Below are positions 1,814-48,459 of a stretch of 54,981 nt of DNA, in pieces. A model generated the notes under the pieces. It ran no database searches. It was not told the origin of the DNA and was given only the letters and a program-made list of their open reading frames with translations. A program made the position numbers and the translations under genes. This DNA comes from Candidatus Staskawiczbacteria bacterium (GTDB taxonomy: Bacteria > Patescibacteriota > Minisyncoccia > Minisyncoccales > Staskawiczbacteraceae). The stretch is from NCBI GenBank assembly GCA_903835075.1, contig CAILLM010000006.1, positions 1-54,981 of the forward strand, in the 5' to 3' direction. Position 1 is the first letter of the stretch, and each line of letters starts with the position of its first letter.

Positions 1814-2533
1814 TTATTGCCTTTGATAGATTGCCAATTGTTGTTCCCACACCTGCAAAAGTAGTCTTTGCATGGGCTCGCGAATGTATTGTTCTTGTTC
1901 TTCAAGAGCTGGCCTAAAAGGCGAACAACTGCTTTCAGCAAGAGCAATAACACCAGGATGCCGGCTTTCCATCTCGCCCAAGAGAACTCTCAGCCCCCTG
2001 ATGCCAGACAAACCAGTAAAGTTTTCCCATCCCAGTATGTACTGACCGCCTTTCGAAACTAACATGCGAGCATAATGTCTGGCGCGGGTATCACACTCAA
2101 CAACTGCTTTAAATATTCTAAAACGCGCAGATGCCTCCAAAGCAGATTGAGACCTCCCAACCACACTAGGCAGTAGCAGGACTCCCCTGTTTTCATAGCT
2201 CACTACCGCTTCTAAGGCAAGACCAAGCACAGGAGATGAAGGGTCACCATTCAAATAGTTAGGAGCTGGCTGAATTTGTCCGCATCTGTCAAAAAGATGT
2301 ACGATTTTCCCTGACCCGTCTTCGGGACTATAAAAATCGTCTTGCAACAAAGTTTCAAGCAAATCCTGAGTCAATGCGTAACTGGCAAACTGTTTGGAAA
2401 GCCAAGGCTCGTCAATCTCGTGAGCATCAAGCTCTAACTTCAAAAAACCAAACGCTTCCCTAATTATGCTCTCTTGGCTTACTAGCTGACTTTCGAGGGT
2501 GGCAACTGCCACTTCCAATTCTTCAGGTTTCAT
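1814..2533 (-). CDS. Hypothetical protein (orphan, GC higher than neighbours)
   Basis: 239-aa ORF with its own promoter and terminator; no motif recognised. Confidence 0.75.
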   Translation of the reverse strand: MKPEELEVAVATLESQLVSQESIIREAFGFLKLELDAHEIDEPWLSKQFASYALTQDLLETLLQDDFYSPEDGSGKIVHLFDRCGQIQPAPNYLNGDPSSPVLGLALEAVVSYENRGVLLLPSVVGRSQSALEASARFRIFKAVVECDTRARHYARMLVSKGGQYILGWENFTGLSGIRGLRVLLGEMESRHPGVIALAESSCSPFRPALEEQEQYIREPMQRLLLQVWEQQLAIYQRQ

Positions 2534-5393: not shown

Positions 5394-5501
5394 AGATTTA
5401 TAAATTAGTATTTTAAGATGTTTATTAAATAGTATATGATAATCTGCTCGCAACCATCATTAAAAAAATGGATAAAAGGTTGTAAAATTTGCTCCGTTCA
5501 T
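5374..5501 (-). repeat. 20-bp direct repeat of the clpB start (5374-5393 and 5482-5501); the upstream copy begins a 13-aa mini-ORF
   Basis: ATGAACGGAGCAAATTTTAC occurs twice; 5501..5460 reads MNGANFTTFYPFF-stop. Confidence 0.85.
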
Positions 5502-5561
5502 TTTTGATATTTTTATTTATATTATTATTACGTTCTAATTTATTATTTTAGCTCACTACTC

Positions 5562-5599
5562 ATGATAAAGCAATAGCACTCTCAAGTCAAGAGTGACAA
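5562..5599 (-). promoter_or_regulatory. CIRCE (HrcA operator) overlapping the clpB promoter
   Basis: ATAGCACTC-N9-GAGTGACAA at 5573-5599 versus consensus TTAGCACTC-N9-GAGTGCTAA; TTGACT-17-TATCAT on the minus strand. Confidence 0.8.
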
Positions 5600-5608
5600 A
5601 TCTTATGT

Positions 5609-5638
5609 AAAAAAAGGCGGGTTCTGGTGAGAACCCGC
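5609..5638 (-). terminator. Intrinsic terminator of aroF
   Basis: GCGGGTTCT-GGTG-AGAACCCGC perfect stem with a U-tract on the minus strand. Confidence 0.85.
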
Positions 5639-5650
5639 ATCATAAAAGGG

Positions 5651-6673
5651 CTACATACTTCTGCCAGCGGCGAGAGCAAGAACCCTCAGCTCACTGCAAA
5701 GACGTGCAAAGTCCGAAAACGTCAGCGAATGTGCACCGTCGCATAGGGCCTTTTTGGGATTCGGATGAATCTCAATAATCAACCCATCTGTGTCACCAGC
5801 AACCGCCATCTTAGCATAACTGGGGACATACTGAAACTTCCCTGCCGTGTGGCTTGGATCGGTGATAATTGGCAAATGGGTCAACTGACGCAGAACTGGA
5901 ATTACTCCCACATCAAAGGTGAAGCGCGTGGAATTATCAAATGTTCTAATGCCACGATGGCAAAGAATAACATTCGGTTGGTCTCCATTGCAACGCAGGA
6001 TATAGTCTGCCGCCATCAACCATTCGTCGATAGTGGCTGTAAGCCCACGCTTGAGAAGTACCGGCTTGTGCGCTTTCCCGACCGCGTCAAGCAGCCGATA
6101 ATTTTGCATGTTGCGAGCACCAATTTGCAGAATGTCGGCGTAGCCCGCGATAAGCTGGACGTCTTGTTCGCTCGTCACTTCGGTGACAATAAGTAGTCCG
6201 GTTTCATCACGTGCTTCTGCAAGGATTTTCAAACCTTCCTCGCCAAGGCCTTGGAAGGCAAAAGGAGAGGTTCTCGGCTTAAATGCTCCTCCGCGCAGAA
6301 ATTGCGCCCCGCACTTTTTAGCCAACCTTGCGCAAGCCAATGTTGTCTCTCTGTCTTCCACTGCACAAGGTCCTGCCATTGTCACGAGCTGATTACCACC
6401 GATTTCGATGTTTCCAACTTTCACAACGCTATTGTCCTTTTTAAAGTCACGCGAAGCCAATTTATAGGGCTTTTGCATTCTCACGACTTGTTCCACGTTG
6501 GGCAGAACTTCAAAGACTCCCGTATCCAATTCTCCTGTGTTTGCCCCTAAAACGGCGATGACTGTCCGTTCTGTGCCGATATTCATCTGGACTTCACATT
6601 CGAGGTCTTTAACTCGTGCGATAACTACTTCTATATCTACTGGCTTTGCGCCTTTTCTCATTTCGATTATCAT
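5651..6673 (-). CDS. aroF: DAHP synthase type I-beta with N-terminal ACT/ferredoxin-like regulatory domain
   Basis: AGPCAVE, RGGAFKPRTSP, QIGARNMQN, DPSH and IEIHPNP motifs; N-terminal domain resembles the Thermotoga-type enzyme. Confidence 0.93.
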   Translation of the reverse strand: MIIEMRKGAKPVDIEVVIARVKDLECEVQMNIGTERTVIAVLGANTGELDTGVFEVLPNVEQVVRMQKPYKLASRDFKKDNSVVKVGNIEIGGNQLVTMAGPCAVEDRETTLACARLAKKCGAQFLRGGAFKPRTSPFAFQGLGEEGLKILAEARDETGLLIVTEVTSEQDVQLIAGYADILQIGARNMQNYRLLDAVGKAHKPVLLKRGLTATIDEWLMAADYILRCNGDQPNVILCHRGIRTFDNSTRFTFDVGVIPVLRQLTHLPIITDPSHTAGKFQYVPSYAKMAVAGDTDGLIIEIHPNPKKALCDGAHSLTFSDFARLCSELRVLALAAGRSM

Positions 6674-6725
6674 GGCGGTGTCTTTCGGTTGGTTTGGTTT
6701 GGTTTAATGTTGGGAATGAACTCAC

Positions 6726-6753
6726 AAAAAAGCTCCACTTTTTGAGAGGAGCT
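6726..6753 (-). terminator. Attenuator terminator in the aroF leader
   Basis: AGCTCC...GGAGCT stem followed by a U-tract, between the leader peptide and aroF. Confidence 0.8.
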
Positions 6754-6780
6754 CATTTGAATTTTTAATTTATTTCAGAA

Positions 6781-6858
6781 TTAAATACTCAAATCAACAC
6801 CCCTCGTAGGGAAGCTAAAGTAAAAAAAACAGATTTTGTTTGAGTTAACTTTATTCAT
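6781..6858 (-). CDS. Phe/Tyr-rich leader peptide (25 aa) of the aroF attenuator
   Basis: MNKVNSNKICFFYFSFPTRGVDLSI-stop; the FFYFSF cluster lies upstream of alternative hairpins. Confidence 0.75.
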   Translation of the reverse strand: MNKVNSNKICFFYFSFPTRGVDLSI

Positions 6859-6865
6859 TAAATAT

Positions 6866-6894
6866 AATCTAACAAATTTATTTTGATACGTCAA
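6866..6894 (-). promoter_or_regulatory. Sigma70-type promoter of the leader-aroF transcript
   Basis: TTGACG-17 nt-TAGATT with TGn; the leader ATG lies 7 nt past the -10 box. Confidence 0.7.
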
Positions 6895-6897
6895 GAC

Positions 6898-8100
6898 TTA
6901 TGGCTTTCTTTCTACTAATGTCACATCTATATCTATTTCTTTGCTACCCCTTAAAATATGTAAGGTAACTTTATCTCCCACGTTATAGTTTCTAATTATT
7001 TGTGATAAAGAATTATTGGTTGTAATTTTTTCACCATTAATTTGTAAAATAATATCTTTTTCTTTTATGCCAGCTTTTTGTGCAGGGGAACCAATTGTTA
7101 TTGCTGGCTCTCCATTATTTCCTTTCAAAACAAGCGCACCAGAATCAACCGAAAGCTTATAATCTTTTTTAACTTGCTCGTCAATTAAAATATACCTTAC
7201 TCCTAAAAATGGATACACAATTTTACTTGTTGCAATAACCTGCTGGATATCTTTTTTGGCCATATCAATTGGAATTGCAAAACCAATAGTTTGAGCTCCT
7301 TGTGCCATTGCAGTACTTATACCCATAACTTCACCTTTTAAATTAAGCAAAGGGCCGCCAGAATTCCCAGAATTAATGGCTGCGTCTGTTTGGATAATAC
7401 CTTCTAGTGTTTCCGAAAAAGAGCCCATTTGATCAGAAGCAGAAATTGTTCTTTGCAAACCCGATACTACTCCCACAGAAACAGTATTAGAAAATTGACC
7501 CAAAGCATTTCCAATAGCTATGGCTGTTTGACCAATTTGAATCCCAGACGAATCACCCAAAGTTGCTGGCTTGAACGATGCTCCATCACTTTTTATTTTT
7601 ATCACTGCCAAATCTTGCACTGGGTCTAGTGCCAAAACCTTTGCTGAATATTTTTTACCGTCACTTGTTAGAACCGTATAATCAGCTTTATTGTCAGAAA
7701 CTACATGTTTGTTGGTTAGAATCAACCCATCAACTGAAACAATAAAACCAGAACCTTCTCCAATTTCTTGATAAACTGGCAAATTCTTAGAAATAACAAT
7801 ACTTACCACTGAGGGAGAAGTGTTTCTAGCAACATCAATTATTGATTGCTCATATGAAGAATTAGACACATAGACACTTGGAGACTGGTCTTTTGGTTTT
7901 TGCACTTCTGGAACTTCAAAATATTTTAAAAATTTTTGGGTTTGCGAAGGAAAATACCGCAAAGCGCCCATGCTTGCAAAAAATCCGATAGAACATCCAA
8001 CAACAATCAATACAACAATCACCCAAAAATTTTTTGTTTTTAGATTTGCTATGGTTTTATTTTTTATTTCTTTTAAATTAAACTTTGGTAAATTGTACAT
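6898..8100 (-). CDS. htrA: HtrA/DegP-like trypsin serine protease with PDZ domain
   Basis: GSGFIV, LTNKHVV, DLAVIK, IQTDAAINSGNSGGPL, C-terminal PDZ and an N-terminal TM helix. Confidence 0.93.
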   Translation of the reverse strand: MYNLPKFNLKEIKNKTIANLKTKNFWVIVVLIVVGCSIGFFASMGALRYFPSQTQKFLKYFEVPEVQKPKDQSPSVYVSNSSYEQSIIDVARNTSPSVVSIVISKNLPVYQEIGEGSGFIVSVDGLILTNKHVVSDNKADYTVLTSDGKKYSAKVLALDPVQDLAVIKIKSDGASFKPATLGDSSGIQIGQTAIAIGNALGQFSNTVSVGVVSGLQRTISASDQMGSFSETLEGIIQTDAAINSGNSGGPLLNLKGEVMGISTAMAQGAQTIGFAIPIDMAKKDIQQVIATSKIVYPFLGVRYILIDEQVKKDYKLSVDSGALVLKGNNGEPAITIGSPAQKAGIKEKDIILQINGEKITTNNSLSQIIRNYNVGDKVTLHILRGSKEIDIDVTLVERKP

Positions 8101-15275: not shown

Positions 15276-16997
15276 TTATACAATCTCTTGCTGATAACAG
15301 GCCTCGCAGTAAACTATTTCCGGTCTGTCGGGCGCATATGACGTTTCGAATTCATTGGTGCAACCTTCTTTCATGCAATGCCTATGCCAAAGCTTAATGG
15401 GGTTACGCCATGCAAACCTTGCATAATGCCTACAATTCTGACAAATTTGCGGTAGGGGTATATTAAGTTTTTTATAAAATTGAAGTTCTTGATTGGTAAT
15501 TTTAAATACTCCCGCACATTCATGATTGCATGCACCTGCATGAACGCAACTTATGACTTCTTTTAATATATTGTCATCTACATTTTTAGCATCATCTGGC
15601 AATTCAGAGCCTAATTTTGTAACATTAAATTTTTTGTTTTTGGCGTCTTGCCATATAAAACCATGATGTTCTGCCTCTTCTTTTGTAAAAGGGAAAAAAT
15701 CATTAGCAAACGACTGGTTATAAGCTATGGGACTCATTTCTGCTGGGAAAAATTCTCCATATTTATAAATACAACCATTTTTGTCTACATAGGGCATGTC
15801 ATTCATATGTTGGATAATTTTTGGAACAAGAGTCTCGTATTCTTCTTTTGTGTATTGTTTATTCAAAATACAATACTGTTTGTTACGCAAACTTACACAC
15901 CCAAACAATGAAGACGAATTTTGAACACAATAATAGCAATAAGATAGATTCGAAATAGTTGAGTAACACTGTGACGAAAAGCTAATATTGTATGCTCCAA
16001 TTCCCACTATAACCGATTCATAAATTAGTTCACTTCCCTCTCCAAAACCACTATGGTCATAAGAGTCTTTTGCAGGTCCAATACTAAAATTATGGCAATA
16101 TTTAACATTTTCACCATTAATAACTCTCCAACAGTATTGAGCATTTTTTGAATCTTTGATGTAATCTCCCAAAACATTAGCATTGTGCCTGCCGTGCATA
16201 AATTTATTCGGGAATTTTATCCAAAAACTAATGGCCTTATTTCGCATTTCCTCAATATTTTTTCTAGAGCTCAAATTAAATTCTTTTAACTTCTGAATGT
16301 ATTCTTCTTTTGAGTAGGCTTGGTTAAAAATATGATATGCCTTGCTTTTTAAATTAATACATCCAAAACAATTGTTACACCCTGTGCAATTCTTAGAAAA
16401 AATTATATCATTGCAATCTTCACAATCTACTGAATATAGCACCTTATAGCATTTAACCAAATTAACAGAATCATAACAAAGTTCTGACTCAATAAACATA
16501 TAACAGTCAAAAATATCTTTAGAGTTTGCTCCCCAAATAGAATAAGCAGAATTTTCCACAAAAGAAGCTGCAAAAGTGAGATAGCAATCTTTTGGGTCTG
16601 TGGCATTCATGCAATAGTCGCTTCTTACGGGATTGGTAAGAGACCTAGACATTAATGGAACTTGATAAAATAAATCTTTAAATTGCTCAAAAAATGGTCT
16701 TGAAAAATCATAGTCTCTGCCATATTGCATTGGATCCCAAGAATCAGAATACCATTCTGCCGTATCTAGCACTTTTACTGGAGAATCTTCATGGTAATTA
16801 GAAAAAATCTCTTTCCCATGAATATCTTTTTTTCTAAAAAGCCTCCATTCATTTCTCCACGCAAAGCGACGCTGTGTCCTACAATCTGGACAAAACGTTG
16901 GTGCCGGTACTTTTATTTTTTCGTAGAACACAAAATCATCGGGCTCAATTACAAAGTCCTTTTTACAATTTTGACATGTTTTAACTTCTTGCTCCAT
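15276..16997 (-). CDS. Cys-rich protein with N- and C-terminal zinc-ribbon motifs, function unknown (paralog 1)
   Basis: CQNC..CPDC N-terminus, central periodic Cys repeats, CQNC and CEAC C-terminus; paralog at 46732..48459. Confidence 0.88.
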   Translation of the reverse strand: MEQEVKTCQNCKKDFVIEPDDFVFYEKIKVPAPTFCPDCRTQRRFAWRNEWRLFRKKDIHGKEIFSNYHEDSPVKVLDTAEWYSDSWDPMQYGRDYDFSRPFFEQFKDLFYQVPLMSRSLTNPVRSDYCMNATDPKDCYLTFAASFVENSAYSIWGANSKDIFDCYMFIESELCYDSVNLVKCYKVLYSVDCEDCNDIIFSKNCTGCNNCFGCINLKSKAYHIFNQAYSKEEYIQKLKEFNLSSRKNIEEMRNKAISFWIKFPNKFMHGRHNANVLGDYIKDSKNAQYCWRVINGENVKYCHNFSIGPAKDSYDHSGFGEGSELIYESVIVGIGAYNISFSSQCYSTISNLSYCYYCVQNSSSLFGCVSLRNKQYCILNKQYTKEEYETLVPKIIQHMNDMPYVDKNGCIYKYGEFFPAEMSPIAYNQSFANDFFPFTKEEAEHHGFIWQDAKNKKFNVTKLGSELPDDAKNVDDNILKEVISCVHAGACNHECAGVFKITNQELQFYKKLNIPLPQICQNCRHYARFAWRNPIKLWHRHCMKEGCTNEFETSYAPDRPEIVYCEACYQQEIV

Positions 16998-40473: not shown

Positions 40474-41194
40474 TTAAAAAATATTCTAATTTTTTGACAT
40501 CTTCGGGTCTTCCGAAGTCCATCCAAAACCCATTAATTTTATTTATTTTTACCCCTTTCTCCTTAGCCAATAAAGAAACCGCATCTGTAATTTCGTATTC
40601 TCCTCTGGGAGACTTTTCTATTTGCCCCAATTTATCAAAAATTTCAGGAGTAAATTTGTACATACTCACATTTATTAAGTTGCCAAAAAACTCTTTGGCC
40701 CGCCCTGAGCCGAGCTGAAGGGGCTTTTCTACTATTTTTGTTAAAAACTCGCCATCGGCAACCAATACCCCAAAATTTTCTGGATGCTCATTCTCTATCC
40801 CAGAAACATAGCTAAATTCATCATCTATATTTATTGCTTTTAAGTCTTCCGCTGAATAATAGTTGTCCCCACTTACATATAAAAATTGCTCGTTTATATC
40901 CTTAACACACATCAATGGCACAGCTGTCCCATTTTTTTCATTAAAGTTAAAAAACTCAAATTGATTAATAACTTTTACATTATACTTATACTCTTTCAAA
41001 AATTCTTCTATCGACTGACCCTGGTACCCAACAATCAAAGTAATATCTTTATAGCCCGCTTCCAATAAATTATCTAAAACATAAGCCAAAAATGGCTTGC
41101 CGTTAACTTCAATCAAATGCTTTGGCTTATCTTGAGACAATTCTCCCATGCGGGTCCCCTTGCCTGCAGCACAAATAACAACTTTATTCACCAT
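40451..41194 (-). CDS. Sugar-phosphate nucleotidyltransferase
   Basis: AAGKGTRM, KPKHL, VEKP, SPRGEYEITD and WMDFG. Confidence 0.9.
   Translation of the reverse strand: MVNKVVICAAGKGTRMGELSQDKPKHLIEVNGKPFLAYVLDNLLEAGYKDITLIVGYQGQSIEEFLKEYKYNVKVINQFEFFNFNEKNGTAVPLMCVKDINEQFLYVSGDNYYSAEDLKAINIDDEFSYVSGIENEHPENFGVLVADGEFLTKIVEKPLQLGSGRAKEFFGNLINVSMYKFTPEIFDKLGQIEKSPRGEYEITDAVSLLAKEKGVKINKINGFWMDFGRPEDVKKLEYFLNGNNKSQ
40697..40723 (-). repeat. Family A repeat, in frame in the nucleotidyltransferase
   Basis: GCCCTTCAGCTCGGCTCAGGGCGGGCC; encodes PLQLGSGRA right after EK. Confidence 0.78.
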
Positions 41195-41750
41195 AGCCAA
41201 GATTAAATGCTTTAATATTAAGTTCTAAATATTTTTCAGGGATAACGTTTTTTATAGCTGTTAATGCAGACTCTTTTTTAATTGGCATTAATTTATTGGC
41301 AACAGCATGCCCCACCATGTACAAAGTACAAACAACTTCATTTTGCAATTTTTCTTTACAATCTTCAGATGCTGGCACCAAATAAAAATTACTTTTAAAG
41401 CCTCTAAGTTGTTTTATAATTTCTTCTTTTGTTGGAGCTCCAGGAATTGGTAAAATATAATTATTAACCAAAAGTCTTGTTTGTTTGCCAGCCTTAGCTG
41501 ATTCTCTCAAACCTTCCATTGCTTCCAAGGCTAAAATTAAATCTGCTTGCCCATTAGAAACCATAGGTGAAAAAACTTTTTTGCCAAACCTAATATGAGC
41601 CTCAACGCTCCCACCTCTTTGTGAAAGGCCATGAAGCTCAGAAGATTTTACATCATACCCCTCAACAACTGCTGCTTCATCAATTACTTGAAGCAAGGTA
41701 ATTATTCCCTGTCCACCAACTCCTGTTAAAATTAAATTAAAATTTTCCAT
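41184..41750 (-). CDS. iorB: Indolepyruvate:ferredoxin oxidoreductase beta subunit
   Basis: GVGGQG, ELHGLSQRGGSV and NIKAF. Confidence 0.9.
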   Translation of the reverse strand: MENFNLILTGVGGQGIITLLQVIDEAAVVEGYDVKSSELHGLSQRGGSVEAHIRFGKKVFSPMVSNGQADLILALEAMEGLRESAKAGKQTRLLVNNYILPIPGAPTKEEIIKQLRGFKSNFYLVPASEDCKEKLQNEVVCTLYMVGHAVANKLMPIKKESALTAIKNVIPEKYLELNIKAFNLGYGE

Positions 41751-41754
41751 AGTA

Positions 41755-43374
41755 TTAAGATTTTTTTTGTCTGCGCTCTAATAGTGCGCAAATTCTTTTA
41801 CAAATTATTAATGAAATTTCATCTTTTTCTAAAAATTCCTTAACTGTGCTTTCCAATTCCTTTATACTAATGGGGTCTAAAACTTTGATATGCTTTACCC
41901 CACAAGCTTTAGCAATTTCTTCTATACTAACTTGCGTTGTGTCTTCCCCCATTAAAGTTTTTCCCATTCCAGGGTTTGGCTGGTGACCTGTCATTGCTGT
42001 GATCCTATTATCCAAAATAACCATCAATGGTTTTGATTTATTATAAACAGCGTTTAAAAGTGGCGAAATTCCTGCATGAAAAAATGTTCCATCTCCCATT
42101 ATAGAAATTACTTTTTGATTGGTGGACTTTGAGACTCCATGACCAATTCCTAAACTAGCTCCCATAGAAAACAACGTATCTTGTATGTTGTGTGGGGCAA
42201 ACCCTGCAATCATATTACACCCAATATCCCCTGTAAAAATAGCATTAGGTGCAACTCTTTTTAAGGTTGGGAAAACATACCAATATGGGCAACCTTCACA
42301 TAGCCTAGCGGTTCTTCTTGGTAAATCAATTTTCTTTACTTTAAATTCTAAAAATTTCTTGCCTGTTATTTTTGCCAATGCAACACAAACTTTTTCTGTG
42401 TTTAATTCTCCGATTATTGGCAAAACATTTTTTCCAAAAATTTGCAACTTTAAATTTTCTATTTTCGCTAAAACATTAACCTCTCTTTCTATATAGCCAT
42501 CTAATTCTTCAACAACTAAAAGTTTTTTTAATGGATGAATAAATTTTTTAATTTTATCTTCTGGTAATGGGTAAAAAAATCCAAGTTTTAAAATTGGCAA
42601 ATCTAATTTCAAAACTTCTAAAGCCTCTTTAACGTGCAGATATGAAACACCAGAAGTTATAACCCCAACCTTATTCTTTGATGAATCTATTAAATTTATT
42701 TTTGACTTCTCAGCAAATATCTGAATTTTTTTAATCTTATCTAAAAGCTCTTTCTTCATCTCCATTGTTCGTGGAGGCATTGTAGCAAACTGATAAGGAT
42801 TTTTTTCAAATTGCCCTTTTTTAAATTCAGCATTTTTTTTAACATCTTCAAACGTTACTGGCATTTTTTGGTGATTAACCCTTGTCGTCGTATGCAAAAT
42901 AACAGGTGTATTAAACTTCTCTGAAATTTCAAAACCTAGTTTTGTAAAATCATAACACTCTTGAGGATCAGCTGGTTCTAATGTTGGAATGTGCCCAAAC
43001 TGTGAATAAATTCTTGTGTTTTGTTCTGTTTGAGCCGAGCTCCAGCAAGAGGGATCATCAGCAATAACAATAACCATGGCCCCCTTGGTGCCAGTGTAGG
43101 CTAATGGCAACAAAGAGTCCGAACAAACATTAATTCCAAAACTTTTCATGCTAACCAAGGTTTTTAACCCCGAAAAGCTGGCTCCAATTGCCGACTCTAG
43201 GCCAACCTTTTCATTGGTTGCCCACTCTACATAGACCCCATTTTGTGCGGCAATTTTGGCAAAATCGTCTCCAATTTCTGCTGAAGGGCATCCAGGATAT
43301 CCTGAAACATAAGAAACCCCTGAATCTATGGCTGCTTGGATTATTGCATTGTTTCCTAATAATATTTTTTTCAT
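41755..43374 (-). CDS. iorA: Indolepyruvate:ferredoxin oxidoreductase alpha subunit (no C-terminal ferredoxin domain)
   Basis: GYPGCPSAE, NEKVGLE, LCEGCP, GDIGC, GDGTFFH and LDNRITAMTGHQ. Confidence 0.9.
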   Translation of the reverse strand: MKKILLGNNAIIQAAIDSGVSYVSGYPGCPSAEIGDDFAKIAAQNGVYVEWATNEKVGLESAIGASFSGLKTLVSMKSFGINVCSDSLLPLAYTGTKGAMVIVIADDPSCWSSAQTEQNTRIYSQFGHIPTLEPADPQECYDFTKLGFEISEKFNTPVILHTTTRVNHQKMPVTFEDVKKNAEFKKGQFEKNPYQFATMPPRTMEMKKELLDKIKKIQIFAEKSKINLIDSSKNKVGVITSGVSYLHVKEALEVLKLDLPILKLGFFYPLPEDKIKKFIHPLKKLLVVEELDGYIEREVNVLAKIENLKLQIFGKNVLPIIGELNTEKVCVALAKITGKKFLEFKVKKIDLPRRTARLCEGCPYWYVFPTLKRVAPNAIFTGDIGCNMIAGFAPHNIQDTLFSMGASLGIGHGVSKSTNQKVISIMGDGTFFHAGISPLLNAVYNKSKPLMVILDNRITAMTGHQPNPGMGKTLMGEDTTQVSIEEIAKACGVKHIKVLDPISIKELESTVKEFLEKDEISLIICKRICALLERRQKKS

Positions 43375-46731: not shown

Positions 46732-48459
46732 TTATATTATTTCTTGTTGATAACATTGCTCGCAATAGACTATTTCTGACCTATCTGGTGCATAAGAGGT
46801 TTCAAATTCATTGTTGCAACCTTCGTTCATACATTTTCTGTGCCAAAGTCTCATAGAACTTTGGTTTTTAACTCTTCTTACGTGTCTACAATTATGACAC
46901 AAATGCGGAATCGGCAACTTATGAAATCTATAAAAATCCAATTCCTGCTTTGTAATTTTGAAAGCCGTTGTGCATCTACAAGCACATTCGCCTTTGTGGG
47001 CACAACCCATAGTTTCTTTTAATATGTCATCTGTAACGTCTTTTATATTATCTGATAGTTTCTCTGACTCCAATGTAACTTTATAATCTTTTTGCCCAGC
47101 TTCTTGCCACCTGAAGCCTTGGTCTAAAGCTTGCTGCTTGGTTATAGGGAAATCATCTGCAGCCACTGTTTCATTATAAGCAAACGGAGCAAGCTCTGGC
47201 GGGAAAAATTCTCCATATTTATATGTCCTGCCTTTCACATCAACATACGGCATTTCGTCCATGTGCTTAATAATCTTTGGCACCAACTCCTCATACTCTT
47301 TTCTAGTATATTGTTTATTAAAAATACAATATTGTTTTTGTTGCAAGCCCACACAGCCGAAAAGGTTAGACGAAGAATTGCATAACATGCAATAAGTACA
47401 ATTATGTGCTGCTTTTGTAACTCTGTAACTCAGCTTTATATTAGAGCATTCTTCTCCGCAACTTGATACTTCATATATAAGCTCTATATTTTGCCCGTAA
47501 AGCGAAACGTCCATGGCATCTTTAGTGGTTGGAGTTATCATATATTGAATATACCTACAGTCTTCGCCGTTTTGGACATAATAAGAATCGCGAACATTTT
47601 TAGAATTGTTAATATACTCTCCGGAAATGTTGAAATTATGTTTTCCGTGGGCAAAACGCACAATACTTTTTGAAAAAATATCCTCAACTTTCTCTTTAAA
47701 CGCTTCTACATTCTTTGCTGACCCAAAATCAAATTCCGCAAATTTTTTCTTATATTCTTCTTTGCTGTATGGCTGATTAAAAATATGATATTGCTTGTTG
47801 CGCAAATTAACGCAACCAATACAATTCATACAACCCTGCAAATTTTTAGAAAACCAAATATCCACACAATCCTCACAATCGGTTGAAAAAAATACTTTGC
47901 TCGATTTAACTACATAAAATGATTCATAGCAATATTCCGAAAATTGTAACCTTGTAGTGTCGATACAATTTTTGATATTATTTGCCCAAGCCGAATACAT
48001 ACAATCCTCGCCCCACGTGACAACAAAAGTTAAATAACAATTTTTTAAGCCAGTTGCTCCCGAGCAATAATCACTATTTTCATCATACCACATCGTCTGA
48101 CTGGCTCTAGGAACTTTTAAAGATAACTCTCGGAGCTGTTCAAAAAATGGCTTAGAAAAATCATAATCTTTTTCATATTCCATCGGGTCCCATTTATCTG
48201 AAAACCAAATGTCTTTTTCATAAACCTTGTATGGAGAATCCGGATGAATTATAGAAAAAATTGTTTCTCCGCTCCAGTCGCTCTTCCTTTTATAAAGCAC
48301 GCGGAAATCTCTCCAAGCCAGACGCCTTTGAGCACGACATTTTGGACACCAAGTTGGCGCTGGCACCTTCATTTTTTCATAGAATGCAAAGCCATCTGGC
48401 TCTATAGTAAAGTCTTTTTTACAGTTTTGACATGATTTAGCTTCACTCCTTTCTTCCAT
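46732..48459 (-). CDS. Cys-rich zinc-ribbon protein, function unknown (paralog 2)
   Basis: Shares CQNCKKDF, KVPAPT, YKYGEFFP and NEFETSYAPDR..IVYCE.CYQQEI with 15276..16997. Confidence 0.88.
   Translation of the reverse strand: MEERSEAKSCQNCKKDFTIEPDGFAFYEKMKVPAPTWCPKCRAQRRLAWRDFRVLYKRKSDWSGETIFSIIHPDSPYKVYEKDIWFSDKWDPMEYEKDYDFSKPFFEQLRELSLKVPRASQTMWYDENSDYCSGATGLKNCYLTFVVTWGEDCMYSAWANNIKNCIDTTRLQFSEYCYESFYVVKSSKVFFSTDCEDCVDIWFSKNLQGCMNCIGCVNLRNKQYHIFNQPYSKEEYKKKFAEFDFGSAKNVEAFKEKVEDIFSKSIVRFAHGKHNFNISGEYINNSKNVRDSYYVQNGEDCRYIQYMITPTTKDAMDVSLYGQNIELIYEVSSCGEECSNIKLSYRVTKAAHNCTYCMLCNSSSNLFGCVGLQQKQYCIFNKQYTRKEYEELVPKIIKHMDEMPYVDVKGRTYKYGEFFPPELAPFAYNETVAADDFPITKQQALDQGFRWQEAGQKDYKVTLESEKLSDNIKDVTDDILKETMGCAHKGECACRCTTAFKITKQELDFYRFHKLPIPHLCHNCRHVRRVKNQSSMRLWHRKCMNEGCNNEFETSYAPDRSEIVYCEQCYQQEII

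Follow-up and report, generated by a model that had tools for sequence, protein, structure and literature searches.

The window, that is the whole stretch of DNA that we analysed, comprises 54,981 nucleotides of one contig of a Candidatus Staskawiczbacteria bacterium genome. The assembly consists of 794,466 bases on 11 contigs and is 97.9% complete; genomes of the family range from 0.4 to 1.0 Mb. Our analysis did reveal evidence for a leader-peptide attenuator between a gene for an htrA-family protease (8100-6898) and aroF, a 340-aa ORF (6673-5651) for a DAHP synthase. All parts lie on the minus strand and are given here with their positions in the window:

6898..8100, minus strand: htrA-family protease, the upstream neighbour in a conserved htrA-[leader-cargo]-clpB slot
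6889..6894, minus strand: -35 hexamer TTGACG, 3 nt past the htrA stop codon
6866..6871, minus strand: TG-extended -10 hexamer TAGATT; from the spacing, +1 is expected at about 6859
6781..6858, minus strand: leader ORF of 25 codons, with no room for a Shine-Dalgarno sequence, conserved in relatives
6811..6828, minus strand: putative control codons 11-16 (Phe Phe Tyr Phe Ser Phe), from the leader translation
6796..6816, minus strand: segment 1:2 hairpin (core 6812-6800), weak, -5.9 kcal/mol alone
6744..6805, minus strand: predicted antiterminator 2:3, -23.5 kcal/mol alone, which takes the 5′ arm of the terminator and covaries in 17 leaders
6726..6754, minus strand: predicted intrinsic terminator 3:4 with U tract, -10.8 kcal/mol, with covariation; predicted 3′ end at about 6726
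5651..6673, minus strand: aroF, type I-beta DAHP synthase of 340 aa with an N-terminal ACT/ferredoxin-like domain, assigned from NCBIfam, Pfam and PDB
5617..5638, minus strand: intrinsic terminator from a consensus scan that closes the aroF unit and separates aroF from clpB

A preliminary description of this DNA had placed a promoter TTGACG-17-TAGATT in front of a start codon at about +1. This arrangement is present, with the two hexamers at 6894-6866 separated by a 17-nt spacer and the leader ATG (6858-6856) beginning 7 nt past the -10 hexamer, which puts it at about +1/+2. Taken alone the promoter is at chance level (9 of 12 consensus matches; 14 such sites found versus 11.9 expected). No terminator was detected between htrA and the leader by consensus scan. 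The peptide of 25 aa containing FFYFSF corresponds to the ORF at 6858-6781, in which this motif occupies codons 11-16. Translation was also described as leaderless, which holds strictly for this locus but less so for its relatives, in which the gap between -10 hexamer and ATG has a median of 10 nt (60 leaders), leaving few untranslated bases and no Shine-Dalgarno sequence. Among 68 homologous leaders, five carry a Shine-Dalgarno-like tetramer, and 60 are preceded at promoter spacing by a hexamer that agrees with TTGACA in five or six of its positions.

The leader had been regarded as a sensor of Phe and Tyr. Aromatic codons are indeed there, but with four Phe codons and one Tyr codon the sensor of this genome appears to be mainly one for Phe, because a Cys codon stands where many relatives have Trp. 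The preliminary description further suggested slippage at a T8 run (6829-6822) that covers the Phe codons. We rejected slippage as a designed feature, since T8 occurs in only 2 of 58 aromatic leaders, the commonest run being six. A shift of frame past the run would lead to a stop at leader nucleotide 68, with the switch kept and fewer sensor codons, or at nucleotide 42, with predicted read-through; the run might thus be a possible source of noise only.

Folding of the 144-nt leader gives -36.2 kcal/mol (z = -3.57), a value reached in 0 of 200 shuffles. The described CCCT-ACG-AGGG hairpin directly behind the control codons (6811-6801) can form and has 84% of its cells paired in the alignment, but 30-362 of 500 shuffles reach its scores and it shows no covariation beyond them. 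This 1:2 hairpin is predicted to fold on the nascent RNA prior to segment 3 and to be displaced by 2:3 on longer RNA. The long-range pairing of GAGGGG with CTCCTC is present as well, but folding prefers a register two bases further 3′, in which GAGGGG (6805-6800) and ATTTGAGT (6794-6787) pair with ATTCAAAT (6762-6755) and a C/T tract (6751-6744). The AGCTCC/GGAGCT-U terminator said to be overlapped by this pairing was found by folding with a stem at 6753-6748/6736-6731, one T-T mismatch in its extension and five more T to 6726; its predicted 3′ end lies 52 nt before the aroF start. Its U tract has 5-6 U only, and it is absent from the consensus scan listing, in which the 1:2 hairpin appears instead. 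A U tract follows the hairpin in all 20 aroF leaders.

Antiterminator and terminator are mutually exclusive and both covary. Specifically, in alignment A1, which contains 17 of the 20 leaders (L048, L049 and L051 of family f17 were excluded as too divergent), pairing amounts to 88.6% for the antiterminator, where 25 two-sided changes occur, and to 96.1% for the terminator, where there are 14; in each case 0 of 500 shuffles reach these values, and slid controls of the antiterminator did not exceed 59.8%; these covariation counts are inflated by relatedness, and the consensus structure was taken from one member of A1. A 1:4 helix is 87% paired with covariation not above shuffles.

The effect of ribosome position was modelled by folding at equilibrium with the ribosome footprint masked, for which a general background value of footprint size was used. 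When the A site was placed on the first aromatic codon, the terminator was favoured, with a probability exceeding 0.5, in 1 of 20 leaders; this rose to 4 of 20 on the last one (11 of 20 with a footprint longer by 3 nt), to 18 of 20 three codons past the last aromatic codon and to 20 of 20 at the stop codon. The modelled flip thus comes just after the control codons; at this locus it falls on codons 17-18. Leaders with Cys codons behaved similarly, with the flip just past these codons in 9 of 9 modelled. In naked leader RNA the terminator was favoured in only 4 of 20 leaders, and at this locus the antiterminated fold lies 3.7 kcal/mol below the terminated one. Because untranslated RNA prefers the antiterminator in the folding model, the default state is predicted to be on, and translation past the control codons would turn aroF off.

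Out of 7724 short ATG ORFs in this genome 189 are aromatic-rich, 13 of these are followed by a terminator-like hairpin, and one has a promoter too. The single parts are weak, but their combination at the aroF leader is beyond chance, since it is the sole ORF to pass all filters and its leader folds with z = -3.57. In the best window of 20 leaders, 126 of 160 in-frame codons are aromatic versus 40 and 53 in the other two frames; shuffling of the same 24 nt gave 61 +/- 4.5 aromatic codons and a maximum of 77 in 5000 shuffles. The in-frame aromatic codons far exceed what T-richness leads one to expect.

Searches for aroF in sets of 61, 79, 401 and 401 genomes yielded 21 genomes that carry an ACT-type orthologue or what is left of one. 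A conserved upstream ORF, which the preliminary description had proposed to look for, was found: an aromatic-rich leader with terminator precedes aroF in 16 of 20 assessable genomes from six families (one of the 21 is contig-cut), and four metagenome loci add further leaders before aroF. In protein-based scans, 11 loci came from the genome collection and 18 from the metagenome collection, but only four had an assessable leader. The four assessable genomes with aroF and no leader are G239, G043, G119 and G803, and no leader was present at the 11 more distant homologue loci that were inspected from the two collection scans (L011-L015, L017, L027, L029-L031 and L033).

A covariance model (R1) was built from A1, whose members match it by construction. 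At E 0.01 it matches 42 of 79 genomes of the family and 60 of 150 genomes of the order. Among 24 new loci in the order, nine carry Cys-rich leaders before cysK-like genes, five carry aromatic leaders before a gene for ADH synthase, the archaeal-type first enzyme, and one carries an aromatic leader before pheA; aroC is present in all five genomes in which ADH synthase has such a leader. Another 40 loci comprise 20 Ile-rich, four Cys-rich, two to three His-rich and one Leu-rich leader. Four tested genes behind Ile leaders are citramalate synthases above the cut-off, and one represents the regulatory end alone. Independently of the model, we found Phe-only leaders before pheA in three genomes and a Tyr-rich leader before a tyrA operon. 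The leader codons thus appear to follow the regulated pathway, and because one scaffold swaps its codons together with the pathway downstream, we consider this the strongest evidence that the codons would act as the sensor. The proposed architecture of pheA/trp-type attenuation is supported by the conserved upstream ORF, the covarying antiterminator and terminator, and codon swaps that match the pathway.

A number of further elements of this kind were observed. A second near-leaderless, attenuator-like element of this genome lies on contig C9 before mraZ (L109:2044-2175, plus strand), where a strong promoter, a Leu-rich leader of 25 codons, an antiterminator and a terminator precede a 124-aa ORF for which no Pfam or other match was obtained. 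In G015 a Leu-rich leader takes the same slot upstream of mraZ in front of a different ORF (L207). Many of the Ile-rich leaders (L184-L206, L209, L210) are situated directly upstream of a murE-type gene, and their cargo is citramalate synthase, a lone regulatory domain or small unrelated Cys-containing ORFs; no Ile-type leader motif was found in this genome. Contig C3 of G087 carries tandem attenuators between htrA and aroF, one of Ile/Leu type (L188) and one aromatic (L127), with a 76-aa ORF between them. In G036 (L113:2132-3250, minus strand) a Tyr-rich leader is followed by a 326-aa ORF with no Pfam match, which by eye may resemble a class I tRNA-synthetase-like fold, and then by tyrA and an aminotransferase gene. 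In G052 (L099, L110) a pheA gene that has a Phe leader is followed by an aromatic leader without aroF, and an ORF for a stand-alone LeuA allosteric domain lies nearby. The ORFs downstream of the His-containing leaders L190, L194 and L204 gave no clear match to the histidine pathway. In L167, L181 and L195 the 5′ part of the leader is interrupted by what appear to be inserted palindromic repeats.

Taken together, we consider it very probable that a ribosome-mediated transcription attenuator controls aroF. In the sequence, promoter, leader ORF, hairpins and aroF follow one another in this order, with the leader ORF reaching into the antiterminator hairpin. A 70S ribosome would load on the 5′-proximal AUG. 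If it stalled anywhere on codons 11-16, segment 2 would be left free, 2:3 would form and transcription would continue according to the model; once past codon 17 it would cover segment 2, and the terminator would form and end transcription at about 6726. With no ribosome present the antiterminator would be preferred, making translation the off signal. RNA polymerase is predicted to enter aroF only when charged tRNA-Phe, and to a lesser extent charged tRNA-Tyr, is scarce. Counting against an attenuator are the short U tract, the lack of covariation beyond shuffles in the 1:2 and 1:4 helices, the effect of footprint length on the modelled flip and the four assessable aroF genes that have no leader. 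It is also hard to see what a switch for aroF would gain a genome that lacks the downstream pathway, and at 10 of 38 loci of the family nothing aromatic is matched by the first downstream ORF.

It might be argued that there is no switch at all and that a constitutive terminator for htrA or for a small RNA happens to follow an incidental T-rich ORF. The hairpin could end htrA transcripts, given the lack of a terminator between htrA and the leader, AT-rich genomes are rich in Phe-rich short ORFs (189 of 7724 here), and the element persists where aroF is gone. However, the in-frame aromatic codons amount to double the expectation from local shuffling, the antiterminator covaries, a promoter stands directly in front of 60 of 68 leaders, and, on an unchanged scaffold, Cys or Ile codons take the place of the aromatic ones when the downstream gene differs, all of which makes a constitutive terminator very improbable. 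We hold as equally small the chance that sensing takes another route, either through a T-box or riboswitch that binds tRNA or a ligand, or through control of aroF translation. The latter would have a parallel in leaderless sensor ORFs of mycobacteria, which act on a downstream ribosome-binding site as far as the available text of the report goes (bioRxiv 10.1101/834739). In the present case no T-box or riboswitch was among the six Rfam matches to E 10 in window positions 5400-7200, the terminator lies 52 nt before the aroF start and leaves the aroF initiation region uncovered, and a U tract stands behind the hairpin in 20 of 20 aroF leaders.

Control of clpB by the attenuator is unlikely here, since aroF has a terminator of its own and clpB is served by a separate promoter that carries an inverted repeat. 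In some relatives clpB lies within about 300 nt of the leader. The inverted repeat over the clpB promoter (window 5573-5598, minus strand), which we assume to be CIRCE-like, occurs in front of 5 of 21 related clpB genes; a search for HrcA in this genome gave no match. Downstream of clpB a 239-aa ORF (window 1814-2533, minus strand) gave no NCBIfam or Pfam match. Elsewhere in the window, a pair of Cys-rich paralogues, 573 and 575 aa long, resemble each other at their ends (15276-16997 and 46732-48459, minus strand).

The aroF product scores above the cut-offs of PRK08673 (448.6; cut-off 335), TIGR01361 (367.6; 267.75) and PF18152 (51.9; 27), and its domain order is PF18152 followed by PF00793. 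The best PDB matches are the Thermotoga-type structures 1rzm and 3pg9 (E 3e-95), aligned over the full length. Like the T. maritima DAH7P synthase, with which it shares length, domain order, the N-terminal ACT/ferredoxin-like domain and the metal and substrate motifs, it keeps Cys103, His275, Glu301 and Asp312, presumably the metal ligands, and KPRTS and GARN, which we take to be substrate motifs, in a comparison with 1rzm and 25 homologues. It differs from the T. maritima enzyme by one Glu-to-His change in the C-x-R-G motif and by Gln29 and Asn31 in the ACT domain, at positions that we assume to contact Tyr/Phe in that enzyme. Some conserved motif positions vary among aroF orthologues. In 7 of 7 pairs pN was 0.11-0.19 versus a pS of 0.71-0.87, which indicates that aroF is under purifying selection. 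Because of its family membership the enzyme is likely to be active and feedback-sensitive. At 48.9% the GC content of aroF is well above the 35.5% of the genome (rank 11 of 379 long ORFs). A recent foreign origin was rejected despite this, as aroF is nested among its relatives in a quick tree of 39 rows and few outgroups, where it groups with sequences of the same genus and family (SH-aLRT 95 and 97).

The DAHP synthase had been described as a lone enzyme, and no downstream enzyme was detected for any pathway family that we searched. Family searches with working positive controls, T. maritima with its whole aromatic pathway among them, found in this genome no aroB, archaeal dehydroquinate synthase, aroD of types I and II, aroE, aroC, chorismate mutase type II, pheA or tyrA. 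The aroA-like match is MurA, aroA was counted as absent, and tblastn gave no match for ADH synthase in this genome. The search covered pathway families other than shikimate kinase, AroH-type chorismate mutase and the trp genes. Transketolase N-terminal domains are present in this genome. Two adjacent ORFs of 539 and 188 aa (window 41184-43374, minus strand) presumably encode indolepyruvate:ferredoxin oxidoreductase-like subunits, whose substrates would be aromatic 2-oxo acids. Of the 21 aroF genomes, aroB was found in two, aroC in one and a prephenate dehydrogenase domain in six; in the order pheA occurs in 56 of 401 genomes and aroC in 11 of 300, two figures that come from different samples.

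Within the family, the aromatic element is present in 38 of 79 genomes with the leader intact at 35 of these 38 loci, and aroF is patchy (6 of 79 genomes). The first cargo at the 38 loci is a full aroF in five, an ACT-like domain alone in 14, pheA in four, an unnamed family in three, an aroF remnant in one and an unmatched ORF in ten, with one locus cut by the contig end. Copies of aroF are broken in G185, truncated in G119 and reduced to a C-terminal remnant in G070. The switch outlives the enzyme in the family and often drives a detached regulatory domain only. These stand-alone ACT-like proteins of 66-108 aa have an additional C-terminal motif in common and are similar to the DAHP-synthase domain in the Atlas; pN is lower than pS in 15 of 15 pairs, but the difference is weak. 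The unnamed cargo family (244 aa) has a weak match to pheA (probability 33.8).

As to the purpose of a regulated first enzyme, our first choice, held tentatively and at somewhat less than even chance, is that DAHP leaves the cell or that a host or partner finishes the pathway, because the genome lacks the downstream steps. Related members of the superphylum have been described, in the accessible text, as ectosymbionts with incomplete amino-acid pathways (bioRxiv 10.1101/2022.04.20.488981). It is possible, though doubtful, that switch and enzyme are slowly decaying relics of a once complete pathway with DAHP as a dead end. Complete-looking pathways with the same leader do exist in the order (aroC in 5 of 5 ADH-synthase genomes; 11 of 300 overall), aroF is patchy (6 of 79) with broken, truncated and remnant copies, and some of its conserved motif positions vary among orthologues. 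On the other hand, synonymous sites are saturated and pN remains at 0.11-0.19 although aroB is absent from 19 and aroC from 20 of the 21 genomes, which points to long selection without the pathway, and leaders are intact at 35 of 38 family loci.

Alternatively, the element might sense starvation in general and occupy a fixed gene slot, with aroF as one of many exchangeable cargos. This would fit with the element in 38 of 79 family genomes and a full aroF at only five loci, with the deviating GC content of aroF, and with the same pattern for the Ile-type leader. We regard it as improbable, since genes of the aromatic pathway, or pieces of them, still make up 24 of 38 cargos and the grouping of aroF with its genus and family speaks against a recent import from outside. 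Less probable still is a pathway that is complete by way of too divergent or unrelated enzymes, or of genes missing from the assembly. The genome is in 11 contigs at 97.9% completeness, many of its genes have no family match, and shikimate kinase, AroH-type chorismate mutase and the trp genes lay outside the search; yet nine family searches with working positive controls gave nothing in this genome, and the same absence is seen in 19-20 of 21 aroF genomes. Apart from these, we put forward with little confidence that these epibiotic bacteria keep the starvation switches to steer biosynthesis in the host. Once their own tRNA-Phe became uncharged, they would produce either the committed-step enzyme, pushing DAHP into the host pathway, or the detached ACT domain as a decoy relieving feedback on the host enzyme. 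If true, this would also explain the lone citramalate synthase and the detached regulatory domain behind Ile leaders.

The best Rfam match of the leader is RF01859 Phe_leader, with 29.5 bits (E 0.022) against a gathering score of 55, so that it is not a member of this family. Enteric leaders terminate by default through 1:2 when they are not translated. Unlike the E. coli leaders, the leader described here has no Shine-Dalgarno sequence, and its untranslated RNA is predicted to read through. It resembles E. coli pheL-pheA, pheM-pheST and trpL in its tandem cognate codons, exclusive hairpins and a switch by ribosome position, as these are outlined in the available sections of a recent paper (PMC11802643). 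According to the same sections, which describe the work of Neshat et al. (2014), C. glutamicum aroR-aroF likewise has a leader with Phe and Tyr codons before a DAHP synthase gene, with read-through on Phe limitation, and its Phe-Tyr-Phe leader reacts to Phe but is insensitive to Tyr, in line with the Phe-dominated reading suggested here; the accessible part of an earlier study also notes the C. glutamicum aroF leader (PMC4046766). Our leader differs from this system in that it belongs to an unrelated lineage, has 5-8 aromatic codons, often with Trp in relatives, and precedes an ACT-type I-beta enzyme in a genome without the rest of the pathway. In T. maritima, by comparison, the whole aromatic pathway accompanies the related enzyme. 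The polycysteine leaderless ORFs of mycobacteria are similar in that a leaderless sensor ORF and a stalled ribosome reshape the RNA, as described in the available text (bioRxiv 10.1101/834739), and Cys versions exist on the present scaffold too. Those ORFs expose a ribosome-binding site and act on translation, as far as the accessible portions of both reports indicate (bioRxiv 10.1101/834739; PMC9031893), whereas here a U-tract terminator lies 52 nt upstream of the start.

The mechanism is classical; what is new is the lineage, the near-leaderless start, the predicted default-on state and the orphan or fragmentary cargo. In the literature that our search covered, mostly openly available main texts, leader-peptide attenuation is not reported for Patescibacteria/CPR, and the available text of a review of the group and of a metabolic survey does not mention attenuation. 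Patescibacteria are described with incomplete amino-acid pathways in the accessible parts of two studies (PMC13293708, PMC7304191). A lineage-specific scaffold that is re-tuned to Phe/Tyr/Trp, Cys, Ile and, probably, Leu and His would mean that these bacteria monitor tRNA charging, and that their transcription and translation are coupled tightly enough for such a switch. Leader codons may furthermore hint at the function of genes behind them that lack annotation. Of most use, in our view, a regulated and conserved first enzyme without its pathway, together with detached regulatory domains behind the same kind of switch, would offer a testable handle on metabolite exchange with, or manipulation of, the host.
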